Shown: positions 44,959 through 64,000, counted from the stretch's first letter. The stretch is 64,000 nt of DNA from an uncultured Methanosarcinales archaeon (GCA_964441565.1 CAYTWW010000002.1:88032-152031); one strand, 5' to 3'. Notes: a model not told the origin generated them from the sequence alone. Made by a program: numbers and translations.

Positions 44959-44989
44959 TTTTATTTCTGGGTAGGTTTTCCCCTGACAG

Positions 44990-45439: not shown

Positions 45440-45479
45440 CCAGAAATATTTATATAGTCTCCAGAGCTAGGTCAGATGC

Positions 45480-45746: not shown

Positions 45747-46262
45747 ATGGCTGAGAAATTCGAGAAGATAATAACACTCATCAACGTCGAGCTTGATGAG
45801 GAGCATAAGCACGCAATGAGGAAGATCAGGAACCTCGAGGTCAAGAAGGAGCAGCAGAAGATCCAGGGCCAGCAGCGCCTTCTAGCTCTCAAGGAGAGAA
45901 ACAGGAAGCTGGAGGAAGCGCTCCCCAAGCTCAATGCAGAGATCCTTGAGCTCCAGAAGCAGAATACATCCCTGCTGTCTCACTACAAGGCCAACGAGAA
46001 GAAACAGGCTGTACTCAAGAAAGACATCGAGGAGAAGCAGAAGCTCCTCAGGCAGCTCCTCGCGTCCCATGAGAAGCTCGTCGATGAGATGAAAGAGCGA
46101 AACAGGAGGGAAGGCCAGCTCATGCAGAGGACAGAGAAGATCATCTTCTTCAAGAAGCAGCTGACAAACCTCATGAAGAAGACAAAGGCCGAGATCTCCC
46201 GTCTTGAATTCGAGCTTGACGCCCTTGCGAAGGAAGAGAAGAAGGTAGATGGGAAGGCTTGA
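45747..46262 (+). CDS. Coiled-coil hypothetical protein
   Basis: 171 aa, continuous heptad-like K/E/L-rich sequence. Confidence 0.4.
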   Translation: MAEKFEKIITLINVELDEEHKHAMRKIRNLEVKKEQQKIQGQQRLLALKERNRKLEEALPKLNAEILELQKQNTSLLSHYKANEKKQAVLKKDIEEKQKLLRQLLASHEKLVDEMKERNRREGQLMQRTEKIIFFKKQLTNLMKKTKAEISRLEFELDALAKEEKKVDGKA

Positions 46263-48952: not shown

Positions 48953-49002
48953 AAATCCTCTGAAGGCGCATTTGTGATACTTTTTTATTTTCTTGAGAAT
49001 AC

Positions 49003-49782
49003 TTGATTGAAATGAAGCTCGAAGATGCGGCAAGGGCTGTACGGCAGATCTATCTGGATAGAGGGATCAATCTCAGCATGTACCTGGAGAAAGAGCTGCC
49101 TATGGATATCGATATCAAGGAAATCTTCCCAAGAGAGACTTTGCATCTCTTCGATCAGTACAGAGATTCTCCCGAAGGAGGACTTTCATTTTCAGAAGGA
49201 TTCGACTTCGAGAAGAGCAACAGGCAGCGAAGGCAGATACTCTATCTCCAGGAGAAGGCTGCTGAGCTTATCAGAGAAGCCGCTCCAGAGAAGATACTCT
49301 CGCTTGGGATCGGCGATGGTGTGACAGCTGCGAAGTACGCAGGCCATGCCACGTTTGTCACAGGCATAGATATGCATGCAGAGTTCCTGGCCAAGGCACG
49401 TTCATCGATACCTGGGCTTGTGCGAGTCCAGGCTGATCTTGAATCTCCCCTCCCTCTCCCGGATGCATCATTCGACGCAGCAGAATGCATCATGGTCAGC
49501 CATCATATCAGGCGATTCAGGGAGTTGATATCAGAAGCTGCACGGATGCTGAGACCAGGAGGGATATTCATCCTTGGAGACATCTGCGACATGACTCTCG
49601 CAAGTGGGAATATGACATTCCCTGAGGCGCACATGCATCCGCCTTTTCATGGCATCGAATTCTATCGAAGCCACTCAAGGATGATGGAAGAGCTGTCTGT
49701 CTTTTTCGATCAATATTTCTATGAGAGAGTATGCCCAAGCCTGGTACTTATTGGAGGGAAGAGACATGGACAACATCGATGA
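49003..49782 (+). CDS. Class I SAM-dependent methyltransferase
   Basis: 259 aa, motif I ILSLGIGDGVTAAKYA and post-I acidic residue pattern, LRPGGIFILGDI. Confidence 0.7.
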   Translation: MIEMKLEDAARAVRQIYLDRGINLSMYLEKELPMDIDIKEIFPRETLHLFDQYRDSPEGGLSFSEGFDFEKSNRQRRQILYLQEKAAELIREAAPEKILSLGIGDGVTAAKYAGHATFVTGIDMHAEFLAKARSSIPGLVRVQADLESPLPLPDASFDAAECIMVSHHIRRFRELISEAARMLRPGGIFILGDICDMTLASGNMTFPEAHMHPPFHGIEFYRSHSRMMEELSVFFDQYFYERVCPSLVLIGGKRHGQHR

Positions 49783-50479
49783 CAGGATATTCTCGCTTTT
49801 CCGCAGACGTAGGAAGCGCTCCGAGCACAGGATAGATATGCTGCAGCTGAACACCCGCAAGACCGGCACCCCAATATTCTACATCATGGGCTATGGATCA
49901 GCGCCGTCCCTTTTCATGCCTGCTGCATCCAGGCTCAAGCATCCTGTCTTCGGTCTCACATATCCTGACAGCATCCTCTCAGGCGATGCAGATCAGACCC
50001 TGAAGACATTCGAGCTCATTGACAGGGCATTCAGCGCATCTGGTGACGGTGAAGCCTATACATTCGGCACATCCCTCGGGAGCTTCATCTCAGTATTCCT
50101 CGCATCAAGGCACAAGAGGATAACCAGGATGATACTCAGCGTGGGAGGAGCAAGCGTCGCTGAGACTGTATGGAACAACCCCAACATGTCACTGATAAGG
50201 CTTAAGCTTGAGAGGAAGTATTCCCTCTCTGATCTCAAGGAGAAGTGGGCTGATATCGAACCAGGCAATCTTGCCACAGAAGTCAGGGACAGGAAGATCC
50301 TTATCTATGAATCGAAGACTGACATATTGGTCAGGCATGAGAACCAGAAAGCGCTGACCCAGGCGCTGTCTGCAGGCAACCAAGTCAAGGTCAGGACAAG
50401 CAGGATGTTTGGCCACTACATCACTGCGATCAGGAGCGCGTATGATTTCAAGGAGATCCAGGATTTCTATGATAGCTGA
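49766..50479 (+). CDS. Alpha/beta-hydrolase-fold protein (tentative)
   Basis: Start re-chosen at MDNIDDRIF. A GxSxG-like nucleophile elbow (FGTSLGSF) and a C-terminal His are present; 237 aa. Confidence 0.5.
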   Translation: MDNIDDRIFSLFRRRRKRSEHRIDMLQLNTRKTGTPIFYIMGYGSAPSLFMPAASRLKHPVFGLTYPDSILSGDADQTLKTFELIDRAFSASGDGEAYTFGTSLGSFISVFLASRHKRITRMILSVGGASVAETVWNNPNMSLIRLKLERKYSLSDLKEKWADIEPGNLATEVRDRKILIYESKTDILVRHENQKALTQALSAGNQVKVRTSRMFGHYITAIRSAYDFKEIQDFYDS

Positions 50480-51122
50480 AAATATCTACGACCTTAAGAG
50501 GGAGCTTGGCGATGTCACCCTTGTCGCAGTCACAAAGACAAGACCGGCAGAAGATATCATCGCAGCCTTGGATGCTGGTGCTGGATTCATCGGTGAGAAT
50601 CGCGTCCAGGAGGCAGTCGGAAAATTTCCAGGCATAGCTAAGAAGATTGAAGAGAAGGATGCAGAGTTCCACCTGATAGGTCATCTCCAGACTAACAAGG
50701 TGAAGCAGGCTGTCCATATATTCGACGTCATCCAGTCCGTCGATTCACTTAGGCTGGCAGAGGAGATCGATAGGAGAGCCTCTGAGACTGGCAAGATCCA
50801 GCGCATACTGCTCCAGGTCAACATCGGCCAGGAATCACAGAAATCAGGAGCTGATCCGGAAGCTGCGATAGATTTATTAAAGCATCTGACCAAGCTCAAT
50901 TCCATCAAGGTCGAAGGGATGATGTGCATCGCTCCTTATTCAGTTGACCCAGAAGACTCAAGACCATATTTCAGGAAGATGCAATCCCTCTTCATCGAGG
51001 CAAACAGGATCCTTGGCATGAAGACTCTCTCGATGGGCATGACAGGCGACTATCGTGTCGCCATGGAGGAAGGCTCCACGATGGTGAGGATCGGCACAGG
51101 AATATTCGGTGGACGAACATGA
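50469..51122 (+). CDS. yggS: YggS-family PLP-binding protein (PLP homeostasis; alanine-racemase-N-like fold)
   Basis: Start at MIAENIYDL. Contains LVAVTKTRPAEDIIAALDAGAGFIGENRVQE, HLIGHLQTNKVK and MGMTGDY. Confidence 0.85.
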   Translation: MIAENIYDLKRELGDVTLVAVTKTRPAEDIIAALDAGAGFIGENRVQEAVGKFPGIAKKIEEKDAEFHLIGHLQTNKVKQAVHIFDVIQSVDSLRLAEEIDRRASETGKIQRILLQVNIGQESQKSGADPEAAIDLLKHLTKLNSIKVEGMMCIAPYSVDPEDSRPYFRKMQSLFIEANRILGMKTLSMGMTGDYRVAMEEGSTMVRIGTGIFGGRT

Positions 51123-52864
51123 GGATCATAATATCAAAAGAGCTCAGGCAAAGGTATCCTGGATTCAATGCGCATGCAGTAGTGTGCAGAGATGTGAAGG
51201 CACGAGAACTTGACAGCGAAAGGAAAGCTGTCGAGCTATCGATCAGGAAAAGCACGAACACGTCCGATATCCATCTTATACGAGATTATAACGAGTTCTT
51301 CAGCCAGTATGGAAAGAAGGTCCCTCTTGAATTCCAGATGGACTCGATCATCAAGGGGAAGAATATCTCAGCAGAGAATCCTCTTGCTGAGCTTTTGTTC
51401 ATGCTGGAGATGAAGCATGCAACGATGATCTCAGGCCATGAGCTGAGCCTGGCAGATCAGGAGCTAAGGTTCGAGATCGGGAAAGGGACTGAAGAATATG
51501 TGAAGCTCGGTGGCAAGCCGCAGAAGATCAAAGAGGGAGATATCCTACTCAAGAGCTCAGGCAGGATCCTCGCATCCCTGCTCTATGGCCCTGATGATAG
51601 CTCAAAGATGAACAAGTCTACAAAGGACATCGTATTTGTCATCTGGTTCTATAAGCCAGCACCTGGCGGCCTTGTCGAAGCGATTGCCTCTGACATTGAG
51701 AGCAATCTCCACGGTTCCACAGACCATTCTGTCGCGTCAGAGGATGAGAAGGAATACACAGTCACACCTTGGGAGGTCAAGGGTGACATCGATTATGGCA
51801 AGCTGATAAAAGATTTTGGCGTGAAGCCAATCGACCAGAAGATCAGGGAGAGGATCAGGAAGATCACTGAAGATGAGCACATGTTCATCAGGAGGAATAT
51901 CTTCTTCGCGCATATGTACATGAACGAGCTGCTCGATGAGTATGAGAAAGGCAATAAGTTCTATCTCTACACAGGACGTGCGCCATCAGGACCGGTCCAT
52001 CTTGGCCACCTTATCCCCTGGGTCTTCACGAAGTGGCTCCAGGATGCTTTTGATGTGCATCTTCTGTTCCAGATACCGGACGAAGAGAAGTTCCTATTCA
52101 AGAAGAACCTTACATTGAAGGAGACGAAGGACTGGGCATACGAGAATATCCTGGATATAATCGCAGTAGGCTTTGATCCTATGAAGACGAAGATATTCCT
52201 TGACACAGAATATGCAGGGCATATGTATGGGCTTGCCTGCCAGGCAGCGAAGAAGATGACATTCTCGACTATCAGGAGCACATTCGGGTTCAATGATTCG
52301 AACAACATCGGGACAATATTCTATACTGCCATGCAGTCAGTCCCTGCATTCCTCCCAACTGAGATGGAAGGGAAGAAGACCCGTGTGTTGATTCCATGCG
52401 CGATAGATCAGGATGTGCATTTCAGGCTCACAAGGGATGTGGCGGAGAGTCTTGGCTATCCAAAGCCTGCGACGATACTATGCAGGTTCCTCCCAGCCCT
52501 TTCAGAAGGAGGGAAGCTATCAAGCTCAGGAGAAGCAGACACGACGATCTGGGCTACAGACACACCTGCCCAGGTCAAAAAGAAAGTCCTCAGATATGCA
52601 TTCTCTGGCGGACGCGACACTGTCGAAGAGCACAGGAAGCTGGGAGGGAACCCTGATATCGACGTCGCATATCAATGGCTGACATTCTTTGAGGAGGATG
52701 ACAGGAAGCTCAAGCAGGTGCATGATGACTACAGATCAGGCAAGCTGCTCTCAGGAGAACTGAAGCTCATGCTGGTGGAGCAGCTCAACAGATTCCTGGC
52801 AGAGCATCAGAAGCGCAGGCATGAGGCGAAGAAGCATATCGAGAAGTTCATGCTGAGGGATTAG
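51119..52864 (+). CDS. trpS: Tryptophanyl-tRNA synthetase (archaeal/eukaryotic type) with an N-terminal B3/4-domain fusion of about 200 aa
   Basis: The C-terminal roughly 380 aa is a class I aaRS with HIGH-like PSGPVHLGHL and KMSKS-like KLSSSGE. The N-terminal part, MRIIISKELRQRYPGFNAHAVVCRDVKAREL...IRDYNEFFSQYG...GDILLKSSGRILASL, matches the stand-alone B3/4 (PheT B3/B4-like tRNA-binding/editing-fold) family pattern. Confidence 0.85.
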   Translation: MRIIISKELRQRYPGFNAHAVVCRDVKARELDSERKAVELSIRKSTNTSDIHLIRDYNEFFSQYGKKVPLEFQMDSIIKGKNISAENPLAELLFMLEMKHATMISGHELSLADQELRFEIGKGTEEYVKLGGKPQKIKEGDILLKSSGRILASLLYGPDDSSKMNKSTKDIVFVIWFYKPAPGGLVEAIASDIESNLHGSTDHSVASEDEKEYTVTPWEVKGDIDYGKLIKDFGVKPIDQKIRERIRKITEDEHMFIRRNIFFAHMYMNELLDEYEKGNKFYLYTGRAPSGPVHLGHLIPWVFTKWLQDAFDVHLLFQIPDEEKFLFKKNLTLKETKDWAYENILDIIAVGFDPMKTKIFLDTEYAGHMYGLACQAAKKMTFSTIRSTFGFNDSNNIGTIFYTAMQSVPAFLPTEMEGKKTRVLIPCAIDQDVHFRLTRDVAESLGYPKPATILCRFLPALSEGGKLSSSGEADTTIWATDTPAQVKKKVLRYAFSGGRDTVEEHRKLGGNPDIDVAYQWLTFFEEDDRKLKQVHDDYRSGKLLSGELKLMLVEQLNRFLAEHQKRRHEAKKHIEKFMLRD

Positions 52865-52867: not shown

Positions 52868-53233
52868 TCATCGGGTCAGCGCCTGATATATGCCATAGAT
52901 GACTGCGCCACTTATCCCTGCTCCTAGTCCCATTTTGATCAGTTCTTTTTTTATGCTATATACAATATGATCCGGGACATCCTGGATATTCATATGCTCA
53001 AGAGATCTCCGTATTTGAGCGCAGGAACCGGGTTTTCTCCCTTCCATACGTCTTGCAAGATAGATCATATTCTCCAGTCCTTGATTCATGGAAGGCTTAG
53101 GCTGACTGTTCATGACAAGCTCGAGTTGCAGAGGAAGATAATGATGTGACAGATAATCTGTAAGTTGGTCAAGCAACATGCAAGGATGATATGATTTTCC
53201 TTTATTTAACCCTTCCGATGTATCTCTTGACAA
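52868..53233 (-). CDS. Hypothetical protein
   Basis: 121-aa ORF; 32-nt overlap with the upstream membrane-protein gene; weak. Confidence 0.35.
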   Translation of the reverse strand: MSRDTSEGLNKGKSYHPCMLLDQLTDYLSHHYLPLQLELVMNSQPKPSMNQGLENMIYLARRMEGRKPGSCAQIRRSLEHMNIQDVPDHIVYSIKKELIKMGLGAGISGAVIYGIYQALTR

Positions 53234-54182
53234 ACATCAGAGAATAGACCTGGAAGAACACTCTGACAGGAAGCGCGAATAGCGCTGTGAGGAAGACGAA
53301 GGCGAAGACCATGATGACGAACAGGAGGCCACCGACCACGATGAGGGGAGCAAGCATTATCTCTGCCGCCTGATAGAACATATAGCCTATGCCGAAGATG
53401 ATGATGCCCACAAGCAGGAATACGAGAAGCAGCATTATGGCGATCAAAAGCTCTGCAATCACTCCGCCTAAGCCCAGTAGCAGGCGCATCAGCCAGTACA
53501 TAGCCAACTCTCCGAACTTCCCTTTAGCCTTCCCTTTGAACTTCTTCCATGCCTCTGTTAATGGGACATGATCAATATACATCACAGGGACAAGGAATTC
53601 ATCTACTACAAACAAGACTAAACCTGTCGTGATAGCGAAAAGAAGGAAACCGAACCCCATAGGCAGGAGAAACCACAAGTTGAAGTCTGCAAGCTCTCCT
53701 GCGAAGAATGATAGCAGGAGCGGAAGCAGTATCAACGCGAATGCTGTCATAGATATGAATCCGAATATCGTCCTGAAAAGAAATAGGCTCATACCCAGCC
53801 CCCTGTACCTGTCGAAGCTTTTCCTTATCCTTATCTCTCCCTTCTCGACACCCTCTACAAATGAGAACAGGAGGACTGAACTCAGGAATGATAGCAGAAG
53901 CCCGACCAGCAGGAGGATGGCGATGAGGATCCCGAATATCGCACCATGCTGATTGATTGCTGATAGTGCCTCGTTGTTGAATTGGATGATCGACTGCCTG
54001 AGATCCAGTGTTCCATGATCTCCTCCGGATCCTCCTGAATTACTGCCTGAATAATTGCCGCTGCTGCCTGACTTGGAGAATGAAAGGATCGCCATCCTGA
54101 TCCAATATCCCTTCTTGAATGGGAACAATAGCTTCTTCATCCTCTGGAATGCAGGACTGATGATCTCAGGAGCGAGTGTCAT
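53202..54182 (-). CDS. Multi-pass membrane protein, hypothetical (Gly/Ser-rich N-terminal loop)
   Basis: 326 aa, about 7 TM helices, SGSSGNYSGSNSGGSGG low-complexity segment. Confidence 0.5.
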   Translation of the reverse strand: MTLAPEIISPAFQRMKKLLFPFKKGYWIRMAILSFSKSGSSGNYSGSNSGGSGGDHGTLDLRQSIIQFNNEALSAINQHGAIFGILIAILLLVGLLLSFLSSVLLFSFVEGVEKGEIRIRKSFDRYRGLGMSLFLFRTIFGFISMTAFALILLPLLLSFFAGELADFNLWFLLPMGFGFLLFAITTGLVLFVVDEFLVPVMYIDHVPLTEAWKKFKGKAKGKFGELAMYWLMRLLLGLGGVIAELLIAIMLLLVFLLVGIIIFGIGYMFYQAAEIMLAPLIVVGGLLFVIMVFAFVFLTALFALPVRVFFQVYSLMFVKRYIGRVK

Positions 54183-55477: not shown

Positions 55478-55551
55478 AGCATCTGGGAATATGGTCCTAT
55501 AGAAAAAATTTCCTAGAAGTCTTTTTATATAATCATAGGTTACGCCTCACT

Positions 55552-58023
55552 GTGAGCCAGCTAAGTCACATCATGGTCTCTTCTCTCGAGAAGAACTCAA
55601 GGAAGAACCTCGTCTCCCTCAAAGGCGATTTTGTCTACAGGAGATATTCCTATGGCTCCATCCTGGAACTCTCAAAGAAGTTCTCGAAGTTCCTCGAACA
55701 GAATGGGATCAGGAAAGGGGACAGAATCTGCATATGTTCATACAACTGCCCGCAGTATTTCTTTGTGATGCTGGGTGCGATGTTCTCGGGTGTGATCATT
55801 GTGCCTGTCGATTTCGCTACATCTGACCAGTTGACCGGTACCTTCATGAAGCTCACTAGGTGCAGGATGCTGATCACAAGCATCAAGAAATCCATCAGCA
55901 CATCAGTGCCTACGTTCTATGTCGAGGAGCTTGAAGAGATGCTATCGCCTCTCACAAAGAAAGAGCCTGTCCATGTCGGAGATGACCACCTGGTAGAGAT
56001 CCTCTTCACATCAGGGACCACCGGAGATCCGAAAGGAGTGATGCTCACACATGATAACATCTGCTCGAACATGATGTCCGCGCTCTCTGTCTTCAAGGTA
56101 TATAGGACCGAGAAGCTGCTCTCCCTCATTCCGCTCTCCCATATGCTCGAACAATGCACAGGCTTCTTCGGCGTGATATTCGCCGGAGCTGAGACGACAC
56201 AACTGAGGTCGAGGAGGCCAAGCGAGATCCTCAAGGTCATACGCTATGAGAGGACCACGATGATAGTGGCTGTCCCGGCATTCTACAATCTCTTCAAGCG
56301 GAAGATCGAGGAGAAGGCAGAGAAATCAGGCAAACTGCAAGACCTGAGAACCCTTCTTACACTGGCTCAGAAGCTTCCAATGCCTGCCAGGAGGCTCCTA
56401 TTCAGGAAGCTGCACAGCACATTCGGAGGAAAGCTCAGGTGCGTAGTGAGCGGCGGAGCATCCCTCCCTCCTGAGACTGAGCTCTTCTGGGACAGGATAG
56501 GGATCCCAGTCATAAACGGCTACGGCTTGACCGAGACAAGCCCGATACTATCGATAAACACCCTTGGGCAGAGGAGATTCGGAAGCGTTGGCAAGCCTAT
56601 ACCAGGTGTACGTCTGCGCGTCTCTGAGGAAGGCGAGATCCTTGCCAGAGGACCAAACATCACGCAAGGCTATTACCTGAATCCAAAGGCGACCTCCTCG
56701 CTCCTGCAGAAAGGATGGCTGCACACAGGCGACTGCGGTGAGATAGACAAGCAAGGTTATGTCTACATCAAAGGGAGGATAAAGAACATGATCCTGAAGG
56801 CCAACGGGCTCAATGTCTACCCTGAGGATATAGAGTTGCTGCTCGACAGCCACCCCTTGGTGAAGGAATCATGCGTGCTGGGCATCGAGAAGGGGACAGA
56901 TGTGATCATAACAGCCATCTTGATCACAAGAGGTATGTCTTCGAACAGCGACCTGAAGGAGATGATAGACAGCATAAACAAGAAGCTTGAGCAGCATCAG
57001 CAGATACAGGATTTCTGCGTCTGGCCAAGACCTGATTTCCCAAAGACTCATACCATGAAGATAAAGAGGCTCCTTGTGGCATCCCAGCTGCAGAGATGCG
57101 AGGCTGGCATCGAAAGCTCTGATGAGCTGTCCTCGATCCTTTCAGAACTATCTCATAAGGATCATATCAAGGACGAGCACCTCCTTTATTCTGACCTGGG
57201 ATTCGACTCTCTGAAGACTATCGAGCTATCCACATTGATTGAGGAGAAGCTCGCTGTCGATATCGATGAGGCGATGATAGATGCAAAGACGACTGTGCGG
57301 TCGCTGAAGGAGATCATCAGCAGATCCGAGCCGAGTAGCGAGCTCCCTGTCTCACGTCTCATGTTCTCCCCGGTCTTCAAGCCATTCAAGCTGATACTGC
57401 CTGAGATAGCTTATCTTGTCACTTCACGGTTCTTCTCAAGCTTCAGGATTGAGGGCAGGGAGAATCTCTCAGATGTGAAAGGTCCTGTCATAATCATAAC
57501 CAACCATACAAGCCATCTTGATATCCCTACGATCACAAAGCACCTGCCGTTCCATCTCAGGACAAAGATGGCGACTGCTGCAGCAGCTGACTATTTCTTT
57601 GTCCAGGATGGAAAGCTTATATCAAGAGCTGTGGCCTTCATGTTCAACCATCTCCTCGGCGCCTTCCCTATGTCAAGGGACAAGAAAGCCCTGCGCCGGA
57701 CATCTCTGAGAAAAAGCCTGGAATTCATAGGCGAGATAGCTGACAAGGGATGGTCGCTTGCCATAGCTCCTGAAGGGACCAGGAGCAGGACAGGCAAGAT
57801 GGGGCACTTCAAGAACGGGATCGGGATCATCGTGAAAGAGACAGGCTATCCTGTCATCCCCGTGAAGGTCAAGGGCCTGTTTGACATCATGCCGCCAAAG
57901 ACCCATTTTCCGAGGAAAAGAGGCCCGGTCGAGATAGTCATAGGGAAACCTGTCAGGTTCTCAAGCACAGACAGTCCTGTGATGATAACAAGAGAACTCG
58001 AAAGCATAGTGAGGAAGCTATGA
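55552..58023 (+). CDS. Tri-domain fusion: fatty-acyl-AMP/CoA ligase (AMP-binding) - acyl carrier protein - 1-acyl-sn-glycerol-3-phosphate acyltransferase (PlsC/LPLAT)
   Basis: 823 aa. AMP-binding core FTSGTTGDPKGVMLTH, then GYGLTETS. The ACP-like segment LLYSDLGFDSLKTIELSTLIEEKL carries the DSL phosphopantetheine site. The C-terminal acyltransferase has NHTSHLDIP (HxxxxD) and APEGTRS. Confidence 0.85.
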   Translation: MSQLSHIMVSSLEKNSRKNLVSLKGDFVYRRYSYGSILELSKKFSKFLEQNGIRKGDRICICSYNCPQYFFVMLGAMFSGVIIVPVDFATSDQLTGTFMKLTRCRMLITSIKKSISTSVPTFYVEELEEMLSPLTKKEPVHVGDDHLVEILFTSGTTGDPKGVMLTHDNICSNMMSALSVFKVYRTEKLLSLIPLSHMLEQCTGFFGVIFAGAETTQLRSRRPSEILKVIRYERTTMIVAVPAFYNLFKRKIEEKAEKSGKLQDLRTLLTLAQKLPMPARRLLFRKLHSTFGGKLRCVVSGGASLPPETELFWDRIGIPVINGYGLTETSPILSINTLGQRRFGSVGKPIPGVRLRVSEEGEILARGPNITQGYYLNPKATSSLLQKGWLHTGDCGEIDKQGYVYIKGRIKNMILKANGLNVYPEDIELLLDSHPLVKESCVLGIEKGTDVIITAILITRGMSSNSDLKEMIDSINKKLEQHQQIQDFCVWPRPDFPKTHTMKIKRLLVASQLQRCEAGIESSDELSSILSELSHKDHIKDEHLLYSDLGFDSLKTIELSTLIEEKLAVDIDEAMIDAKTTVRSLKEIISRSEPSSELPVSRLMFSPVFKPFKLILPEIAYLVTSRFFSSFRIEGRENLSDVKGPVIIITNHTSHLDIPTITKHLPFHLRTKMATAAAADYFFVQDGKLISRAVAFMFNHLLGAFPMSRDKKALRRTSLRKSLEFIGEIADKGWSLAIAPEGTRSRTGKMGHFKNGIGIIVKETGYPVIPVKVKGLFDIMPPKTHFPRKRGPVEIVIGKPVRFSSTDSPVMITRELESIVRKL

Positions 58024-58331
58024 GGGCCGGTATCGACATAGTCCACATCCCAAGGATCAAGGCAATGCTTGATGATCCAGAGCTTCTCGGGAGGACATTC
58101 ACGCATTCTGAGCTCAGGGACAAGCGGCCTGAGCATCTTGCTGGCATCTTCGCAGCCAAGGAAGCCTTTCTCAAGGCTTCTCAGGTCAAGGTATCCAGAT
58201 GGGATGAGATCGAGATAGGATCAAAAGGCAAGCCAAGGATCATCCATAGCTTCGCAGATAGATGCAAAAGTATCGACCTCAGCATATCCCATGACGGAGA
58301 CTATGCTGTGGCTATAGTCATCATTCCTTAG
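58020..58331 (+). CDS. acpS: Holo-[acyl-carrier-protein] synthase (AcpS-type 4'-phosphopantetheinyl transferase)
   Basis: 103 aa. MRAGIDIVHIPRI ... FAAKEAFLKA ... ISHDGDYAVAIVI is typical of AcpS. ATGA overlap with the upstream ACP-containing fusion. Confidence 0.8.
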   Translation: MRAGIDIVHIPRIKAMLDDPELLGRTFTHSELRDKRPEHLAGIFAAKEAFLKASQVKVSRWDEIEIGSKGKPRIIHSFADRCKSIDLSISHDGDYAVAIVIIP

Positions 58332-58339
58332 CCAAAGTG

Positions 58340-59017
58340 TCAGAATAATCCCTTTATCCCCCATAGCAACCAGTTCCTCCAGAAGTAGAAGAAAGACAGG
58401 GGACTGCCCTCGATCCTTGCCACCACATACTGCGCATACAATCGGGGGCTGATCATGTGCTTCTCATTCGATGGGATCTTGTAGTTCTTATGGAAATCCG
58501 TCATCAGCCTGTACGGATGGAAGATGATGACTCTCCCCTCGACCTCTTTCATTATGCTCTTGAGATAGCCCTCGACCGCATGTTTGGATGCGCAGTAGAG
58601 TGAGTAATGCTTGGCAGGGAAGAGTCCTGCCATCGAGCTTATGACTGCAAGAGTTGCATGTGGATTGTTCTTGTAGAGTTCCTTAGAGGTCAGGAATACA
58701 GATCTGGTATTGATATCAAAGATCCTGTCCCATTCTTCTGCAGAATATTCAAGGAAAGGTTTCCTGTCATTGTATCCAGCGCTGTGCAGCAGCAGGTCGA
58801 TTGTGCCAAGTTCCCTCCGTGATTCCCTGAGCAGCGCCTTCACCTGCTTCTCATCAGTGATATCTGCAGAAAAGGATTTTGACCCCAGTTCCTTCCCAAG
58901 CATTGCGAGGGCTGGCTTGTCCCTCCCCGAGAGAAATATCTTGTGCCCTTTTCGCTTCAGCAGCCTCGCGACCTCTGCTCCCAGTCCACCTGTCGCTCCG
59001 ATTATAAGCGCATTCAT
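58340..59017 (-). CDS. Short-chain dehydrogenase/reductase (SDR; FabG-like ketoreductase)
   Basis: Start re-chosen at MNALIIGATGGLGAEVARLL (TGxxxGxG Rossmann motif). Catalytic YxxxK region (YCASKHAV) and the NNAG-equivalent region (HSAG) are present. Confidence 0.8.
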   Translation of the reverse strand: MNALIIGATGGLGAEVARLLKRKGHKIFLSGRDKPALAMLGKELGSKSFSADITDEKQVKALLRESRRELGTIDLLLHSAGYNDRKPFLEYSAEEWDRIFDINTRSVFLTSKELYKNNPHATLAVISSMAGLFPAKHYSLYCASKHAVEGYLKSIMKEVEGRVIIFHPYRLMTDFHKNYKIPSNEKHMISPRLYAQYVVARIEGSPLSFFYFWRNWLLWGIKGLF

Positions 59018-59018
59018 C

Positions 59019-59057
59019 TCACATATCCAGGGGCATTCGGGCTCCCGCCGCCATGCC
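59019..59057. repeat. 38/39-bp direct repeat, copy A (tcacatatccaggggcattcgggctcccgccgccatgcc), left border of the AT-rich insertion
   Basis: Matches 59679-59716 with 3 mismatches and 1 indel. Copy A sits 1 nt upstream of the SDR ATG. Copy B encodes the last 12 codons plus stop of the DUF87 ATPase. Confidence 0.7.
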
Positions 59058-59678
59058 CACAAACTCCCGATCAATTTAGTAGGATTATCCTTCGGAACTT
59101 TCCTTGGGAACAACTTTTAAGCACCTTGTATCACCAGTATTTACTATTTCATTATGCTTGACATACATGTTTCTGTGAAATTGTCTTTCTCGATAATGTC
59201 TTTTTCAGGAGAAAAACAGTAGTAGTTGTGCTTAAAAAATCCATTATCAAGGTTAAATTCAATTTTATCCTGGTCAACAGTGTTACAAAAATCCAGATTA
59301 TTTGTTTCTTTTGCCTGCAGAAATTGTCTGTTAAAGACACCCCCGCAGCTGTCATAGACAAACGGATTGTCAAAGATAAAACTAAACAGGACCAAAATAT
59401 CAATTAATATGGTGATAGCGAACAACGCATCTAAAATATAAAGACTCATATTTCTTCTTTTCCTAGCCTGATAATAAAAGAAAGAAAGCAGACATGTGCA
59501 TAATAGCCAGATAATGGATAGCGATGCAAAATAGAGGATTTGGTTTTCGGTAATAATTTTGTAGATTAGATCGATAAATAATCTAGTGGGAACATAACTT
59601 ATCGGAATAAAAAATACAAAAAGCATGAATTTTTTTACAAAAACATGATTCTCCATGGTTTTTTCTCGCACAGGCATA
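59058..59678. mobile_element. About 0.62-kb AT-rich insertion (roughly 32% GC versus about 49% for the surroundings) bounded by the 38-bp direct repeats; carries one membrane-protein gene
   Basis: There is a sharp compositional drop between the repeats. Removing the segment and one repeat copy would place the ATPase stop 1-2 nt from the SDR start, the tight packing seen elsewhere in this window. Confidence 0.5.
59144..59677 (-). CDS. Membrane protein encoded within the AT-rich insertion, hypothetical
   Basis: 177 aa, three predicted TM helices, then an Asn/Asp/Phe-rich soluble domain. Its AT-rich codon usage is atypical for this window. Confidence 0.5.
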   Translation of the reverse strand: MPVREKTMENHVFVKKFMLFVFFIPISYVPTRLFIDLIYKIITENQILYFASLSIIWLLCTCLLSFFYYQARKRRNMSLYILDALFAITILIDILVLFSFIFDNPFVYDSCGGVFNRQFLQAKETNNLDFCNTVDQDKIEFNLDNGFFKHNYYCFSPEKDIIEKDNFTETCMSSIMK

Positions 59679-59716
59679 TCACATATTCAGGGCATTGGGG
59701 CTCCCGCCACCATGCC
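59679..59716. repeat. 38-bp direct repeat, copy B (tcacatattcagggcattggggctcccgccaccatgcc), right border of the AT-rich insertion
   Basis: See copy A; overlaps the ATPase 3' end (…WHGGGSPNALNM-stop). Confidence 0.7.
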
Positions 59717-61016
59717 AGCTGACCCTTGGCCTAATCCTTATCTCGTGGATCGATTCGTTCATATCATCAAAGACAATCGCTGTGCCTTTCAGCCTTGGAA
59801 GGTCTTCCATCGCTTCCATGATACCGTCCCTGTTGTAGCTCTGCGCAAGCAGCATCAGCGCCTGCACATCGATATCCGCGGTGACCCTGTGGGAAAGAAC
59901 AGTATCTGACTGTGTCATCACATCTGTATGTATCTTGCCTGGCTGCTGGGTCGCGAGTATAAGCGATATGCCTGGCTGCCTTCCCTCTCTCATTATGATC
60001 TTGAGCGGCTCAGTGGCCGCATTCTTGTCCTTCTCGTCCCTCGGAAGGAACTCATGCGCCTCGTCGATTATCAACCACACAAGAGGCATCTTCTTTGCCT
60101 TCTCAGGATTCTTGATAGCATGGTTATCGCCGCTCATCCATCCCTTCTCTTTGTTGATGTGCTGGAATTCCTCATCCTTTCTGGAGAGCATCCTTGATAT
60201 GAATAGATGCTTGGCCACAAGCCCAAGCACCATCGCTTTCACATCCCATCCTGAAGGAAGCGTAGCATAGCAGCTGACATCGAGTATCGAGATCTGTCCA
60301 GGAGCAGCGAGGAAATCTAGCTCGGTAGTCTCCTCTGAGAAGACACCCCAGCTGTCTGCGAGCCTGAACATGGCGACTGCTTCCATCCTCTCTTCCAAGG
60401 GGAACTCATCATTCTTCTTCAGAGCCTCCTCGATATCCTTGATGTCATAGTCTTTCTTCGTGTCCTTCAGCATCTGGATAGTGTCGTTTATCATGACACC
60501 TATTCCTGAGAACTTCTTCTGCTTGAATGCCTCAAGCCAGTCATCTGCATCAAGGTCTGATGGCTTGATCGAGAACGGAAAGTCAGTGGGGATGCCTTTC
60601 TTCTTGTATTCCTCATAGAACTTGCATGGCGTGAATATCCTTACATTCACCCCTTGCGGCTTGAGCCCAAGCTCTGCCAAGCCTTTCTCCTCGTCGACAT
60701 TAGGCATCTTCATTGTCCAGTAGACACCCATCGTGTCGATCAGGATTATCGAAACATTTTCCTTGATCTCATCCTTCATCAGCGAGAACCCTTCTGCCAC
60801 GACACCCATCGTATATGATTTTCCGCTTCCCCGCTTGCCGAATATAGAAAGGACGTGGCTTCCTGAGACATCCAGGTAGACAGGATTGCAGAGCTTTGTT
60901 GAGTATGCATCCACCTCCTGGTATTTGTTCCCTACATAGATGCATCCGAGAGTCCCGTACCTCTTCGCATCTCCGGCGCTCCTCCCGATTATCAGGGGAG
61001 TCTCTGTGTCTATCAT
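59679..61016 (-). CDS. HerA/DUF87-family P-loop ATPase (second copy in window, 445 aa)
   Basis: Walker A IFGKRGSGKSYTMGVVAEG. Walker B/DEAH-like LVWLIIDEAHEFLP. ATQQPGKI corresponds to the TQRP-type motif. Confidence 0.75.
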   Translation of the reverse strand: MIDTETPLIIGRSAGDAKRYGTLGCIYVGNKYQEVDAYSTKLCNPVYLDVSGSHVLSIFGKRGSGKSYTMGVVAEGFSLMKDEIKENVSIILIDTMGVYWTMKMPNVDEEKGLAELGLKPQGVNVRIFTPCKFYEEYKKKGIPTDFPFSIKPSDLDADDWLEAFKQKKFSGIGVMINDTIQMLKDTKKDYDIKDIEEALKKNDEFPLEERMEAVAMFRLADSWGVFSEETTELDFLAAPGQISILDVSCYATLPSGWDVKAMVLGLVAKHLFISRMLSRKDEEFQHINKEKGWMSGDNHAIKNPEKAKKMPLVWLIIDEAHEFLPRDEKDKNAATEPLKIIMREGRQPGISLILATQQPGKIHTDVMTQSDTVLSHRVTADIDVQALMLLAQSYNRDGIMEAMEDLPRLKGTAIVFDDMNESIHEIRIRPRVSWHGGGSPNALNM

Positions 61017-61541: not shown

Positions 61542-64000
61542 CTAATCTTTTCTCCTACGTCTTCTGTAGAACAGGAAGATCAGGCCACCCAATACCAGGA
61601 TCGCTACGATTGCCATCCAGACATTGCTGTTCTCATCCTGCGCTTCAGTCTCGATCTGATCCTCAGGCTGCAGTGCAGCATTGCCTGTGACTGCCTCGGA
61701 TATCTCAGCCTGGCATGGCTGCTCCTGATTTGGCCTTGACGATGTGGTGCCGCATGCGTTGGAATCAGTGCAATCCCTTGTCTGCATCCCATCTGAGCAT
61801 CCAGACCATTGGCCGCAGTTCCATTCCTCGACACAGGAGCAGTTCTGGATCTCAGCAGGTCTTCCATATGTACTTCCGCAGTTCACATCAGTGCAGCTCC
61901 TGGTCTGTGACCCGCCTACGCAGCTGCTCCACTCAGTGCACGTCCAGTTCGAATAGCAGTTGTCTCTTCTCAGATCCCAGCTTCTGCCAGAAGAAGAACT
62001 GATAGTCTCAGGAATAGTCCCTCTTACTGCAGAATGTGTCAGGTTCTCTATCCTTATCGTTGCTCCCTCATCTACGCAGACAATCCCGTTGCTTGTCAGG
62101 CTGCCTCCAAGACATGATGTCATATCAGTCTCGCTTGCTCCATCGCAACCATCGCTCATCTGGTTTATAGATGCAATTTCGCTGTCCTTGACACATAGTC
62201 CGATGAAACCATTGTCAGATATATAGATCGTCTTCTTCTTGCCTGCCTGCAACTGGCCAGAGAGATTGACTATCATGGAATTCTCACCTTTGATTACCTT
62301 GATCCTGCTGAGATCAAGCACATCATCTGTGAAATCATGCGAGAAGTTCAACATGAGATCCGACGAATCATAGAGCCTGATCTCGTATTCTCCAGAATAG
62401 TAGATTCCTGATGCATTCCCTTCTCCCACCCCGATAGCCAGATCGCTGACACCTGGAGCAGGAACATCATCCTCGTCAAACCACAGCCTGTCTGTATTGT
62501 CAGGCAAGACGTCATTATCGCTGTCAGCCATTATCTCGAAGAATTTGCTGCTGCTCTGCTTGGTCTCATTCGACACATTATCATAGCATTCGACAGACCA
62601 CTCATAGCTTCCGCTTGACAGTGTCTGTTCAAATGAAAGTACAATACCCTCCTCAGGTGAATCTACGGTCTGGTTGAGCACTGAGTCTATGTAAAGCGAG
62701 CAGTTCGGGGCAGTCCCATTATAGTAGATGTATGTGAAGTTGATATCTGTGCTGAATGTCTGGTTGCTGTTCTCTGGACTATATAGCTTGATCGTGAATT
62801 CAGGCCTGTCACCGTACACCTCGAAATCATCTACATCAGTCTCATTCACATTTCCTGCATCATCGAACAGGTAGAACCTGTATGACCAGTTGCCTGTCAC
62901 TCCATTCTTTGCCACTATTATCGGCTCAGTGATGTCAGTGATGACTTGCCTGGTATCATTCACCCAGCTGCCGCTCATGTTAGTCGAAAAGATATAGCTC
63001 TCTGTGAAGTTGTAGGATGCAAGATTATCAGAGACCTTGATCCTGAAGTATATCTCCTCTTCGCTGTAGACAGGACCATAGTGCTGCTGCTCAGAGTAGC
63101 CAGGCGCATCATTGTCGACAATGATATAGAGCCTGTCTGAATCCCTGGTGTTGTTGCTTGGTGTTGCACGATCTGTGATGTACACCGGAAGCTGGTAGTT
63201 GCCTGTCTCACTCTGCGTGACTGTGATATTGGTGCTCCAGGAACCCCACTGGCCTGAGGCGTTGCTTCCTGATACATGCTCCATCGTAGCATTCGTTTCG
63301 CTGCCTGCATATGTGGTATCCACCATCACAATGCCTATCCCTGCATCCTCGTCAAGTGCAGCTATCGAAGCTGTGACAACCTGTCCACTCCGTACTGAGG
63401 ACTGTCCAGAAGGGTATGCTAGGATCAGGTCTTTTGATGAAGGTATGTTCCTGTCGATCATCAGGTGCACTGCTACAGACGCCTGGTTGTTCTTGGTGTC
63501 TTTAGCTGTCACATTGATAACATATCCATCAGAGTCGTCATACTCGGCTGTATCCCATAGGCACGCATACGGAGCAGTCGTATCCACACATAGTGTAGAG
63601 TAGGATTCTGTTGAATTCTTGATCCTGAAAGTGACACTTGATATCCCGCTCAGGTCAGAGGCAGACACAGATATCGTCGCATTCCCATTGGAATATGTGT
63701 TGTTGCCCGGGCTTGCTATCAGGACATTTGGTGGTGTAATATCGATATTGGTCGTCCTTGAGATATCGCTCGCATTGAATTGATGCAGCTTGTTGGAGAT
63801 GCCGACATATGCATAGCCGTTCGCCACAGCAGGCGAGTTCTGGAGCATTATATTGGACCTGTACATCGCGATCAATTGAGATATGTCAGAGGCATCAAGC
63901 TGATAGAATCTCCAATCATGGCTTGTGACATACACGAATCCGTCTGCTACAGCAGGTGAAGATGTTATGCCGCTGCCTGTCCGATATTCAGCGATCTTCT
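61542..64000 (-). CDS. Large N-glycosylation-sequon-rich surface protein with beta-propeller-like (PQQ/BamB-like) repeats, Cys-rich W-x-C-x-EWS-x-C repeats and a C-terminal TM anchor; N-terminus lies beyond window end
   Basis: The reading frame stays open upstream of the ORF-track Met to position 64000 (…ADGFVYVTSHDWRFY…). There are many N-x-S/T sequons. Repeats NWTCTEWSSC, EWNCGQWSGC and TRSCTD/TRDCTD are present. C-terminal VWMAIVAILVLGGLIFLFY is followed by RRRRRKD. Confidence 0.7.
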   Translation of the reverse strand, partial: KIAEYRTGSGITSSPAVADGFVYVTSHDWRFYQLDASDISQLIAMYRSNIMLQNSPAVANGYAYVGISNKLHQFNASDISRTTNIDITPPNVLIASPGNNTYSNGNATISVSASDLSGISSVTFRIKNSTESYSTLCVDTTAPYACLWDTAEYDDSDGYVINVTAKDTKNNQASVAVHLMIDRNIPSSKDLILAYPSGQSSVRSGQVVTASIAALDEDAGIGIVMVDTTYAGSETNATMEHVSGSNASGQWGSWSTNITVTQSETGNYQLPVYITDRATPSNNTRDSDRLYIIVDNDAPGYSEQQHYGPVYSEEEIYFRIKVSDNLASYNFTESYIFSTNMSGSWVNDTRQVITDITEPIIVAKNGVTGNWSYRFYLFDDAGNVNETDVDDFEVYGDRPEFTIKLYSPENSNQTFSTDINFTYIYYNGTAPNCSLYIDSVLNQTVDSPEEGIVLSFEQTLSSGSYEWSVECYDNVSNETKQSSSKFFEIMADSDNDVLPDNTDRLWFDEDDVPAPGVSDLAIGVGEGNASGIYYSGEYEIRLYDSSDLMLNFSHDFTDDVLDLSRIKVIKGENSMIVNLSGQLQAGKKKTIYISDNGFIGLCVKDSEIASINQMSDGCDGASETDMTSCLGGSLTSNGIVCVDEGATIRIENLTHSAVRGTIPETISSSSGRSWDLRRDNCYSNWTCTEWSSCVGGSQTRSCTDVNCGSTYGRPAEIQNCSCVEEWNCGQWSGCSDGMQTRDCTDSNACGTTSSRPNQEQPCQAEISEAVTGNAALQPEDQIETEAQDENSNVWMAIVAILVLGGLIFLFYRRRRRKD

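Follow-up and report, generated by a model that had tools for sequence, protein, structure and literature searches.

A ligase-ACP-acyltransferase fusion linked to AcpS and SDR genes in a DPANN archaeon: a probable fatty-acid salvage module of bacterial origin

Gene content of the locus

Three intact ORFs form a module at positions 55552-59017 of the window, the whole 64 kb stretch of DNA analysed here: a tri-domain fusion gene, an AcpS gene, and an SDR gene. Checking the ORFs placed them exactly at the coordinates given in the earlier note. The module comprises the following features:

55524..55532, + strand: candidate archaeal TATA box TTTATATAA, ~24 nt upstream of the GTG start (consensus-level only, read from the sequence)
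55552..58023, + strand: fusion gene with a GTG start, encoding ANL ligase, ACP, and PlsC-type acyltransferase, 823 aa (Pfam domains, same-length homologues)
55630..57081, + strand: ANL ligase domain, N- and C-subdomains, residues 27-510 (PF00501 and a C-terminal subdomain match)
57130..57312, + strand: acyl carrier domain, residues 527-587, with Ser553 in LGFDSL (PF00550)
57355..57432, + strand: predicted helices, residues 602-627, MFSPVFKPFKLILPEIAYLVTSRFF..., ahead of the acyltransferase core (AF2 models)
57442..57870, + strand: PlsC/GPAT-family acyltransferase domain, residues 631-773 (PF01553, E=7e-21)
58020..58331, + strand: AcpS-type 4'-phosphopantetheinyl transferase of 103 aa, with translational coupling to the fusion (PF01648, TIGR00556)
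58340..59017, - strand: classical SDR of a rare, module-specific subfamily, 225 aa, convergent with AcpS (adh_short, E=5e-37)

The spacing between the putative TATA box and the GTG codon would imply a leaderless or near-leaderless fusion transcript. The ATGA overlap described previously is present, with the AcpS ATG at 58020-58022 and the fusion TGA at 58021-58023. The SDR gene is indeed convergent downstream, and its stop codon lies 8 nt from that of AcpS. The SDR ORF extends over 58340-59113 on the minus strand; its true start is taken to be the ATG at 59017 because the N-termini of the homologues agree.

Archaeal host of the module

The archaeal context proposed earlier is borne out by the genes around the module. 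The contig carries an archaeal ribosomal operon (archaeal-type uS5, uL18, eL32, uS8, eS4, uL4, and uL3) and an archaeal TopA, while the TrpRS in the window is of the archaeal type and the SecY has a Sec61 plug. The uL3 protein is nearest to those of Woesearchaeota/Nanoarchaeota (DPANN). These genes indicate that the contig is archaeal and that the host is a Woesearchaeota-like DPANN archaeon.

CPR bacteria are among the nearest relatives of the fusion, as they would be if a bacterial fragment had been mis-assembled or mis-binned into an archaeal contig. However, the module has archaeal genes to either side on one and the same contig, and in GC, GC3, and codon usage it resembles typical host genes, the fusion gene (codon distance 0.046) being among the most typical. 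The fusion protein or near-identical variants from its 90% cluster occur on six contigs, of up to 220 kb and 186 kb. In other assemblies, homologous modules stand directly beside genes that mark archaea: L21e, Rpb4, and TFIIB (L015), exosome subunits and S2 (L017), or L15e (L009). An assembly artefact is thus exceedingly improbable and effectively refuted.

Domains and predicted structure of the fusion

The 823-aa protein is the triple fusion that had been claimed: Pfam assignment recovers AMP-binding, PP-binding, and Acyltransferase domains, each above its cut-off, and homologues of the same length align across 100% of the query. AMP-binding (PF00501) covers residues 27-375 (E=3e-67). AMP-binding_C_3 covers residues 413-510 with 22.2 bits, just over its cut-off of 20.8, and two other Pfam models of ligase C-terminal domains score under theirs. 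The carrier domain matches PF00550 over residues 527-587 (30.4 bits against a cut-off of 20.8), and its best NCBIfam matches are acyl carrier proteins, all under cut-off.

The catalytic residues of the ligase, ACP, and acyltransferase are all intact in the window protein, and the motifs pointed out before (DSL, HxxxxD, APEGTR) are present and conserved when residues are counted across 118 family members. In the ligase, the P-loop (TSGTTGDPKG), GYGxTE, TGD, GRxK, and A10 lysine are invariant or near-invariant; T153-T157, P160, K161, and G162 of the P-loop and K503 of A10 are each found in 118/118. The same holds for Ser553 of the ACP (DSL) and, in the acyltransferase, for N651/H652/D657 (NHTSHLD) and P740-E741-G742. 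The four acyltransferase motifs read NHTSHLD (I), FPMSR (II), PEGTRS (III), and PVIPVKV (IV).

AF2 modelled the full-length fusion with a pLDDT of 88.9 and a pTM of 0.85, and the acyltransferase domain with a pLDDT of 91.7. The models place helices at residues 602-605 and 607-627, which probably form an interfacial membrane-binding element.

The earlier note called the first domain an acyl-AMP ligase, a term that finds no specific support in the FAAL sense: the nearest relatives by sequence and structure are ANL enzymes of the CoA-ligase and acyl-ACP-synthetase type. The top 60 sequence matches with solved structures are CoA ligases, luciferases, an acyl-ACP synthetase, and A domains, and none of them is named a fatty acyl-AMP ligase. 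The best are CoA ligases, including FadD13, with the acyl-ACP synthetase 8hsy lower in the list; in fold, the domain matches MenE and FadD13. Every match of the fusion to NCBIfam ligase models falls under its cut-off. The best superpositions of the ligase and ACP part of the model are with structures in thioester-forming states: 5x8f (MenE ternary complex, rmsd 4.4), 5bsr (4CL with AMP and CoA), 5es8 (LgrA in its 'thiolation state', 626 columns, rmsd 5.7), and 5ja2 (EntF).

For the acyltransferase model, the top Foldseek match is Thermotoga maritima PlsC (5kym; E=3.6e-11, TM 0.63-0.67, 25% identity), aligned over 218 columns of the 240-residue query. GPAT1 and plant GPATs follow, and PatA and LpxM are much worse (rmsd 12-15). 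The best NCBIfam matches of this domain are Aas-type and PlsC-type models; the curated PlsC model TIGR00530 gives 55.2 bits against a cut-off of 102.95.

These rankings bear on the acceptor. The acyltransferase might act on something other than a membrane glycerophospholipid (for example a glycolipid, a protein, an amino-lipid precursor, or a small secondary metabolite), which would make the module a specialised tailoring or natural-product unit. PF01553 enzymes do include OlsA, LpxL/M, and PatA. Loading modules of natural-product pathways typically contain A-ACP didomains, and the fold matches include structures of McyG and NRPS. In most bacterial members of the family, motif III is also degenerate, a sign that acceptors may vary from member to member. 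However, while the phosphate-binding arginines of motifs II and III are degenerate in the rest of the family, both R709 (motif II) and R744 (motif III) are kept in 17/17 members of the DPANN/CPR clade, together with a canonical PEGTR. Given also that PlsC is the best fold match and that the module is flanked by no further biosynthetic genes (KS, C domains, glycosyltransferases) in any of the 12 loci examined, a different acceptor is unlikely.

The AcpS and SDR partners

AcpS assignment rests on PF01648 (E=1.6e-11; 44.7 bits against a cut-off of 25) and TIGR00556 (66.5 bits against 45.35), whereas the stricter acpS equivalog TIGR00516 gives 49.7 bits, under its 59.8. The motifs GIDIV, AAKEAFLKA, and SISHDGD can be read in the protein, which is 53% identical to the AcpS of a CPR module. 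To our knowledge, ACP and AcpS are generally absent from archaea, and this AcpS is therefore probably dedicated to the fusion.

The SDR had been described as FabG-like, but this label says too much: the FabG model TIGR01830 scores 77.9 bits against a cut-off of 297.75, the FabG subfamily model NF009466 84.7 against 222, and several unrelated SDR models score higher. The protein instead belongs to a tiny dedicated subfamily: only 6 of 1.84 billion representative clusters reach E<=1e-30. Two further lineages of archaea and a single CPR bacterium have its orthologues (37-40% identity) beside their own modules. They share its catalytic residues and C-terminal motif, and the window protein ends in an aromatic, hydrophobic tail.

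De novo ACP-dependent fatty-acid synthesis, with the SDR as FabG and the ACP domain carrying the growing chain, would account for the sub-threshold matches to 3-oxoacyl-ACP reductase models, and some DPANN MAGs reportedly contain Fab genes (PMC10936187). However, no ketosynthase, dehydratase, enoyl reductase, or malonyl transferase occurs in the window or beside homologous modules, and a search of the 64 kb window, part of a 220 kb contig, turned up no genes for fatty-acid synthesis, whether Fab, KS, or other. A ligase domain is, moreover, a feature of salvage and not of synthesis. De novo synthesis is accordingly highly improbable in light of these scores and neighbourhoods.

Family distribution and gene neighbourhoods

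Among database relatives, at least the 120 best contain both ligase and acyltransferase, and a recorded carrier-domain match is missing in four. Most of these 120 align over 94-100% of the query, with identities of 34-54%. The window protein has the size and order of the family (three domains, ~820-840 aa, alignable end to end). Most named members are bacterial and include CPR, TM6, Acidobacteria, and Desulfobacterales. The tri-domain fusion is, by these database matches, not special to archaea and belongs to a large, mostly bacterial family. Within it, the window fusion falls in a clade that mixes DPANN archaea and CPR bacteria with 100% bootstrap.

Twelve loci were compared, nine from DPANN/CPR and three from Babeliales, Acidobacteria, and a bacterium with a 3.8 Mb genome. 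AcpS adjoins the fusion or lies within ~2 kb of it at 9/9 DPANN/CPR loci and is near it at 0/3 of the others. The trio of fusion, AcpS, and SDR is confirmed at four loci, from three archaeal lineages and one CPR bacterium, between which the flanks are wholly reshuffled. The SDR is missing at the Woesearchaeota locus L007 and at L014. In a second archaeal clade (Pacearchaeota), the fusion is paired with AcpS and an MFS transporter, and the two MFS genes of this clade are orthologous (39% identity).

An alternative reading is an ether-lipid route, in which fusion and NAD(P)-dependent partner would be a minimal form of the myxobacterial elbD/elbE system that makes non-isoprenoid alkyl-glycerol ethers instead of esters. 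ElbD has the same core order of ligase, ACP, and acyltransferase, and 'ElbD-like homologues lacking the FAR domain' have already been mentioned for other bacterial phyla (PMC9131029). Furthermore, elbE, an NAD-dependent epimerase/dehydratase gene, adjoins elbD and is required for ether lipids, and the window SDR has a weaker Epimerase match in Pfam (8.7e-8) besides adh_short. Acidobacteria and Desulfobacterales are named members of the family, and alkyl ether lipids are made by some Acidobacteria and by at least one sulfate reducer. However, the N-terminal FAR (NAD_binding_4) that defines ElbD is missing in the window protein and in all 120 best relatives, no ElbB (HAD) or ElbC neighbour was seen at the module, and the window SDR, of the classical short type, falls in another, tiny subfamily. 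In Desulfatibacillum, alkyl ether formation is assigned to Ger and not to ElbD. On balance, an ether-lipid route is improbable for the window module.

Proposed function

Archaea do not normally make acyl-glycerol-phosphate lipids. The core proposal of the earlier note, a bacterial-type unit that activates, loads onto ACP, and transfers to a glycerolipid, with its own AcpS in an archaeal genome, is supported by the domains, the archaeal contig, and the composition of the module. The explanation that we favour, and consider rather probable as a whole, is that the three genes are a horizontally acquired module of bacterial origin, self-sufficient for fatty-acid salvage and glycerolipid acylation in a DPANN archaeon. 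The most likely function of the fusion is ATP-dependent activation of a fatty acid, self-loading, and acylation of a phosphoglycerol acceptor, and the most likely role of the module is to salvage fatty acids, not to make them de novo.

The reaction sequence would begin with AcpS, which would move 4'-phosphopantetheine from CoA onto Ser553 of the fused carrier. The ANL ligase would then adenylate a free fatty acid, probably long-chain, with ATP and, in its thioester-forming conformation, load the acyl group onto the pantetheine thiol of the fused ACP instead of onto CoA. The acyl-ACP would be delivered in cis to the PlsC-like domain, held at the membrane surface by its N-terminal helices, where the His652/Asp657 dyad may esterify a glycerol acceptor that bears a phosphate, for example G3P, DHAP, lysophosphatidic acid, or some other lysophospholipid. 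The partner SDR, likely NADPH-dependent, may act on a lipid carbonyl in this pathway, and the most specific conjecture is that it reduces 1-acyl-DHAP to 1-acyl-G3P. In an organism whose window shows no fatty-acid synthesis, ester-linked acyl lipids would thereby be built or repaired from scavenged fatty acids and lysolipids. CPR bacteria have no fatty-acid synthesis and abound in lysolipids (PMC7242380).

Several observations count against salvage: the absence of the SDR at the two loci named above, the sub-cut-off scores of the acyltransferase against the curated PlsC model and of the ligase against NCBIfam models, the in vitro results for the related ElbD, and the transporters. ElbD displayed ligase and ACP activities, and its acyltransferase activity was undetected (PMC9131029). 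Neither the MFS partners of the Pacearchaeota clade nor that of one bacterium are LplT homologues, and in the window no transporter adjoins the module and no MFS gene lies near it.

A bolder and rather unlikely extension is that some DPANN archaea, along with their CPR counterparts, scavenge fatty acids and turn them, with this portable set of three genes, into ester-linked fatty-acyl glycerophospholipids, possibly via a DHAP route. The PlsC/GNPAT-like domain would acylate DHAP, and the SDR with its hydrophobic C-terminal tail would convert the product to 1-acyl-G3P, so that a G3P dehydrogenase would not be needed. If true, this would mean a living archaeon with a bacterial-type or mixed membrane, the lipid divide having been crossed in nature by way of a module passed between the ultra-small symbionts of both domains.

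Comparison with known systems

PlsC has the fold and all four motifs, HX4D and EGTR among them, of the acyltransferase in the fusion. Here, however, this domain is the C-terminal part of a larger enzyme and would be fed in cis by the fused ACP.

The A-PCP loading didomains of NRPS, PKS, and CAR type likewise place a PPTase-primed carrier after an adenylation domain, and the thiolation states of LgrA and EntF are matched by the model. In the fusion, the downstream partner is a lipid acyltransferase and not a condensation, ketosynthase, or reductase domain, and the PPTase is of the small AcpS type instead of the Sfp type.

Myxococcus xanthus ElbD (FAR, ACS, ACP, AGPAT) resembles the fusion in domain architecture, with the same core order and an adjacent gene for an NAD(P)-dependent oxidoreductase (PMC9131029). 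In contrast to ElbD, the window fusion lacks a FAR domain and has no elbB/elbC neighbours, its partner is a classical SDR of a distinct rare subfamily, and its host is archaeal/CPR.

In Escherichia coli Aas, too, a single polypeptide contains an acyltransferase (PF01553) together with a fatty-acid ligase of the ANL type, and both halves are homologous to the fusion (BLASTP: 28% identity over 299 aa and E=1e-29 for the ligase, E=1e-6 for the acyltransferase). Aas, encoded with lplT, is a 2-acyl-GPE acyltransferase/acyl-ACP synthetase that re-acylates lysophospholipids with exogenous fatty acids via acyl-ACP. The grouping of MFS, AcpS, and fusion in the Pacearchaeota clade would echo lplT-aas functionally, by analogy. 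Scores against the Aas equivalog models (NF006386, NF005291, NF005959) stay far below their cut-offs, at 192 bits against 1221 and 158 against 1349, and the acyltransferase domain alone scores 54.8 against Aas models. As the earlier note maintained, the two proteins differ in domain order and in the fused ACP, and BLASTP reveals the permutation directly: Aas runs from acyltransferase to ligase, whereas the fusion runs from ligase through ACP to acyltransferase. Aas uses free cellular ACP, while the fusion has its own ACP and its own AcpS.

The module and its domains

An earlier note on this DNA had described an overlapping pair of genes and a convergent third. All three lie exactly at the coordinates that it gave, and the ATGA overlap is present. 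The genes, and the domains of the first protein, an ANL ligase-ACP-PlsC-type acyltransferase fusion, are as follows.

Genes of the module and domains of the fusion protein
55552-58023, + strand: fusion, 823 aa, GTG start; the N-terminus (MSQ...) agrees with homologues
58020-58331, + strand: AcpS-type phosphopantetheinyl transferase, 103 aa; its ATG overlaps the fusion TGA
ATG at 59017, - strand: biologically sensible start of the SDR, 225 aa; backed by homologue N-termini
Fusion residues 27-375: AMP-binding domain (Pfam, E=3e-67)
Fusion residues 413-510: ANL C-terminal subdomain (Pfam)
Fusion residues 527-587: PP-binding domain (Pfam, 30.4 bits against a cut-off of 20.8)
Fusion residues 631-773: Acyltransferase, PF01553 (Pfam, E=7e-21)

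Pfam assigns every domain that had been read in the 823-aa protein, and key residues are invariant in an alignment of 118 full-length fusion relatives. In the ligase, these include P-loop T153-T157, P160, K161 and G162, G323, Y324, G325 and E328 of GYGxTE, D394, G408, R409 and K411 of GRxK, and the A10 lysine K503. The carrier serine S553 is also invariant, as are N651, H652, D657, P740, E741 and G742 of the acyltransferase. The tri-domain observation is confirmed, far beyond chance. The second protein is an ACPS (PF01648, E=1.6e-11; TIGR00556, 66.5 bits against 45.35) and the third a classical SDR (Pfam adh_short, E=5e-37). The ends of these two convergent genes are 8 nt apart.

A TATA-box-like candidate element precedes the fusion gene, where relatives are very AT-rich. 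No tRNA or Rfam elements were found in the 64-kb window. A DUF7544 multi-pass membrane protein (53202-54182, -; E=1.3e-49) is encoded on the strand opposite to the module, 1.4 kb upstream of it. It is not kept beside the module in relatives and is thus probably unrelated. Between the module and a downstream HerA/DUF87-type ATPase lies a 177-aa membrane-like ORF without a Pfam match.

Archaeal host

Ribosomal proteins of archaeal type (uS5, uL18, eL32, uS8, eS4, uL4 and uL3) are encoded in an operon in the window. Each protein scores far above bacterial models on an archaeal or archaeal/eukaryotic NCBIfam model, with uL4 falling 8 bits below its own NCBIfam cut-off and eL32 also under its cut-offs. 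Together with an archaeal TopA, SecY with a Sec61-type plug and an archaeal-type TrpRS, the operon bears out the archaeal context proposed in the earlier note. The best named relatives of uL3 are all from Woesearchaeota or Nanoarchaeota and are at most 61% identical. Thus, the host is a rather divergent member of the DPANN, the ultra-small archaea. Many window ORFs have no Pfam match, as is probably typical for DPANN genomes.

That the module was misplaced in an archaeal contig during assembly, a possibility the note had raised, is hardly credible. The GC content of the module (0.497-0.508), its GC3 and its codon usage all lie within the spread of 26 host genes. By codon distance (0.046), few genes are more typical of the host than that of the fusion. 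The fusion or near-identical variants from its 90% cluster occur on six contigs, the longest of 220 kb and 186 kb, and homologous modules in other assemblies directly adjoin archaeal markers. The evidence indicates a module long resident in a genuine archaeal chromosome.

Distribution and phylogeny

Among the best 120 database matches to the fusion, all contain the ligase and acyltransferase domains, all but four have a recorded carrier-domain match, and nearly all are about 820-840 aa long. Named relatives come from Acidobacteria, Desulfobacterales, Tepidiforma (Chloroflexi), TM6/Babeliales, Patescibacteria, Woesearchaeota and Pacearchaeota. Several fusion relatives are on contigs of 1-4 Mb. 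The tri-domain architecture is not an archaeal oddity. In a scan of genome contigs with the fusion protein, the matches listed were distant acyl-CoA synthetases of Proteobacteria.

In a neighbour-joining tree of the fusion family (814 columns, 50 bootstraps), the window protein belongs to a fully supported (100%) clade of 17 sequences. This clade straddles DPANN and CPR (ultra-small bacteria), as it comprises archaeon- or Woesearchaeota-labelled proteins and, nested inside it with 94% support, a pair that has a protein of Beckwithbacteria (CPR) as a member; the contig of that protein also encodes DnaE and GatCAB. Between the window archaeon and a CPR bacterium, identities are 45% for the fusion, 53% for AcpS and 37% for the SDR. 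A single well-supported clade spanning both groups indicates that a tool for building membranes has passed between the domains. Exchange of genes by CPR and DPANN has been reported (PMC12455944). The Pacearchaeota fusion falls in a separate clade (100% support) with a protein from contig L017, which is archaeal (exosome subunits, S2). These two separate placements suggest that the family entered Archaea at least twice.

Gene neighbourhoods

Neighbourhoods were read at 12 loci in addition to the window. AcpS is next to the fusion gene or at most about 2 kb from it in all nine DPANN/CPR loci (the window, L004, L007, L009, L011, L014, L015, L017 and L020), and directly adjacent in seven. It is near the fusion gene in none of the three loci from Babeliales, Acidobacteria and a 3.8 Mb bacterial genome (L010, L018 and L019). 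The convergent SDR is found in the window, in two more archaeal lineages (L004 and L015) and at the CPR locus L011; a possible fifth SDR-fusion pairing, P0006 with P0136, is suggested by contigs of matching length. Among the loci read, L007 and L014 lack the SDR. Other flanking genes are wholly different between the trio loci. Thus, the trio is either held together by selection or moving as a block.

The Pacearchaeota-type clade has a different set of partners from the window clade. Here, the fusion gene runs in the same direction as the genes for AcpS and an Atg22-like MFS transporter (L009, 5518-10520; L017, 4477-8436), and only L009 has an extra alpha/beta-hydrolase. The two MFS proteins are orthologous (39% identical), and the transporter is a conserved fusion partner in this clade. 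Elsewhere in the family, one MFS gene adjoining a homologous fusion is GPH/MelB-like; the archaeal ones are Atg22-like. LplT, the transporter linked to Aas, was ruled out as the identity of the MFS partner by NCBIfam and by BLASTP against E. coli LplT. Two CPR versions of the module have a lipase-type gene within a few kb: a patatin-like phospholipase in L014 (9283-10191) and a Hydrolase_4 protein of the lysophospholipase/monoacylglycerol-lipase family in L011 (4761-5558). Such lipase-type genes fit a lipid-scavenging neighbourhood, yet they are common genes.

The SDR

The SDR had been described as FabG-like, a label that has to be withdrawn. On TIGR01830 it reaches 77.9 bits where 297.75 are required, less than it scores on several unrelated SDR models. 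Among 1.84 billion representatives, an exhaustive phmmer search returned only six clusters at E<=1e-30. These proteins and the module-linked orthologues share the TGxxxGxG cofactor motif, NNAG and the Ser/YxxxK catalytic residues. An Arg two residues past strand beta2 in most members suggests NADP(H) as the cofactor. The C-terminal segment, HP[YF]RL.T.F..Y..K.P..H..P..YA.Y.VA......RNW..., is rich in aromatic and hydrophobic residues, and the protein may be a membrane-interfacial reductase for a lipid substrate. An SDR beside an ACP could also belong to de novo FAS. This role is very unlikely for the module, since the SDR fails the FabG models and no KS, DH or ER genes are present in the window or next to the homologous modules.

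Acyltransferase and ligase

Confident AlphaFold2 models were built from an 89-sequence alignment, with a pLDDT of 91.7 for the acyltransferase domain, and a pLDDT of 88.9 and a pTM of 0.85 for the full-length protein. The best solved match of the acyltransferase model is Thermotoga maritima PlsC (5kym; E=3.6e-11, TM 0.63-0.67, 218 aligned columns), followed by human GPAT1 and plant GPATs; PatA and LpxM align much less well, at an rmsd of 12-15 A. Helices predicted at residues 602-627, before the acyltransferase core, may form an interfacial anchor, as in PlsC. The domain is equally near the Aas-type and PlsC-type NCBIfam models, under the cut-off of both.

The arginines of motifs II and III bind the acceptor phosphate in GPAT/AGPAT enzymes. 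In the DPANN/CPR clade, R709 and the PEGTR arginine R744 are each present in 17 of 17 sequences. Outside this clade, motif III is degenerate, PEG[K/E/G][L/R/M] (alignment positions of residues 743-744 of the window protein), and the Arg is found in only 22 of 98. Because both arginines are strictly kept, the DPANN/CPR clade is more PlsC-like than the bacterial bulk, and these residues indicate that it probably acylates a phosphate-bearing glycerol acceptor. The degenerate EGTR elsewhere suggests that many bacterial members may use a different acceptor from that of the archaeal/CPR clade. For the window protein, a non-glycerolipid acceptor is improbable, being opposed by the conserved arginines and the PlsC fold.

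The ligase of the full-length model is closest to thioester-forming states, namely the MenE ternary complex (rmsd 4.4) and 4CL with AMP and CoA. The ligase and carrier portion aligns with the A-PCP "thiolation state" structures of LgrA and EntF (626-697 columns), a likeness in the model that is consistent with a fused carrier loaded by its own ligase. The solved ligases nearest in sequence are the CoA ligases MatB, FadD13 and MenE; a Vibrio-type acyl-ACP synthetase comes lower in the ranking, and no FAAL enzymes appear in it.

Proposed function

In the proposed mechanism, AcpS would prime Ser553, and the ligase would adenylate a free fatty acid and then thioesterify it to the fused carrier. 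The carrier would pass the acyl group in cis to the PlsC-like domain on the membrane, where LPA, a lysophospholipid, G3P or DHAP would be esterified. The SDR would carry out a linked reduction, possibly of acyl-DHAP. We hold the sequence of priming, activation, carrier loading and PlsC-like transfer with moderate confidence; the chain length, acceptor and SDR step are what we infer. The acyl donor made by the module would require only ATP, CoA and free fatty acid. Thus, the module could in principle work in a genome without fatty-acid synthesis, free ACP or acyl-CoA metabolism, and ultra-small genomes are reported to lack fatty-acid synthesis (PMC7242380).

The physiological role may be salvage or repair of ester lipids in the archaeon. 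The membranes of archaea and bacteria differ in chemistry, which is non-homologous. It is doubtful that the module gives the archaeon ester-linked acyl phospholipids; if it does, this would be a notable case of the lipid divide being breached in nature. Most ultra-small DPANN and CPR organisms are without lipid synthesis, which raises the question of how they obtain their membranes. The compact module (3.5 kb, three genes) makes ester-lipid synthesis or repair in DPANN an answerable question. It would also be an entry to the first biochemistry of a large uncharacterised bacterial enzyme family.

Other genes in the window

15964-17274, - strand: 436-aa protein with two PLD-like domains and a lamin-tail domain
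25012-25953, + strand: very weak NurA-like ORF
28402-30384 and 59679-61016, both - strand: two separate HerA/DUF87-type ATPases, the latter directly downstream of the module
30412-34259, 39093-42767 and 43886-46262: long series of ORFs of considerable size (up to 687 aa) without a Pfam family at E<=1e-3
47792-51122, + strand: stand-alone TrpB (TIGR00263, 570 bits), then a methyltransferase, a weak alpha/beta-hydrolase and a YggS-type PLP protein
51119-52864, + strand: TrpRS, just downstream of TrpB in the same orientation
61542-63935, - strand: 797-aa Big_7 Ig-like-domain protein

The catalytic core of TrpRS (residues 210-580) follows an N-terminal extension of about 200 aa with a weak B3_4-domain match (PF03483, E=1.7e-3), an appended domain unusual for TrpRS. 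Further trp genes were not seen in the window, and the lone TrpB hints at indole salvage in a reduced genome. The PLD-like protein was considered as a phospholipase or cardiolipin synthase and rejected, because its best NCBIfam matches are the NucT nuclease and defence-associated PLD proteins (DrmC, DpdK). It is probably a secreted or surface nuclease, not a lipid enzyme. The Big_7 protein is rich in Cys, Ser and Thr and ends in a hydrophobic segment and RRRRRKD. It is likely a cell-surface adhesin, possibly with a role in host attachment.

Comparison with known systems

Transfer from bacteria has been reported for PlsC homologues of DPANN (PMC6431249), and likewise for Fab-type genes and CFA synthase (PMC10936187). 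A review of myxobacterial plasmalogens gives the domain order of ElbD, the Myxococcus xanthus ether-lipid enzyme, as FAR, ACS, ACP and AGPAT, and describes ElbD-like homologues of other phyla as almost all lacking FAR and unstudied (PMC9131029). Thus, the fused family has been seen before and is biochemically uncharacterised. An ElbD-like ether-lipid role for the module is unlikely; judged by the review's description of ElbD, the FAR domain and elbB/elbC are missing (PMC9131029). The literature searched gave no description of the fused module in archaea and nothing specific on the fused architecture or on ElbD homologues without the reductase domain. Databases already contain archaeal copies under the label "AMP-binding protein".

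Both the parts and the fused family belong to known kinds. What is new is the conserved, portable unit of fusion, dedicated AcpS and rare dedicated SDR common to DPANN and CPR, the second archaeal version with a transporter, the clade-specific retention of canonical phosphate-binding residues, and the evidence of long residence in a genuine archaeal chromosome.

Direct comparison with Aas of E. coli MG1655 upholds the earlier claim that the domain order differs from that of Aas: both halves are homologous, but their order is swapped. The ligases are 28% identical over 299 aa (E=1e-29), and the acyltransferases match at E=1e-6. E. coli PlsC aligns with the fusion in the motif III-IV region (E=3e-5). 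The fusion resembles the logic of Aas but is rebuilt without the need for a host ACP, and this freedom would account for AcpS travelling with the fusion gene in ultra-small genomes.
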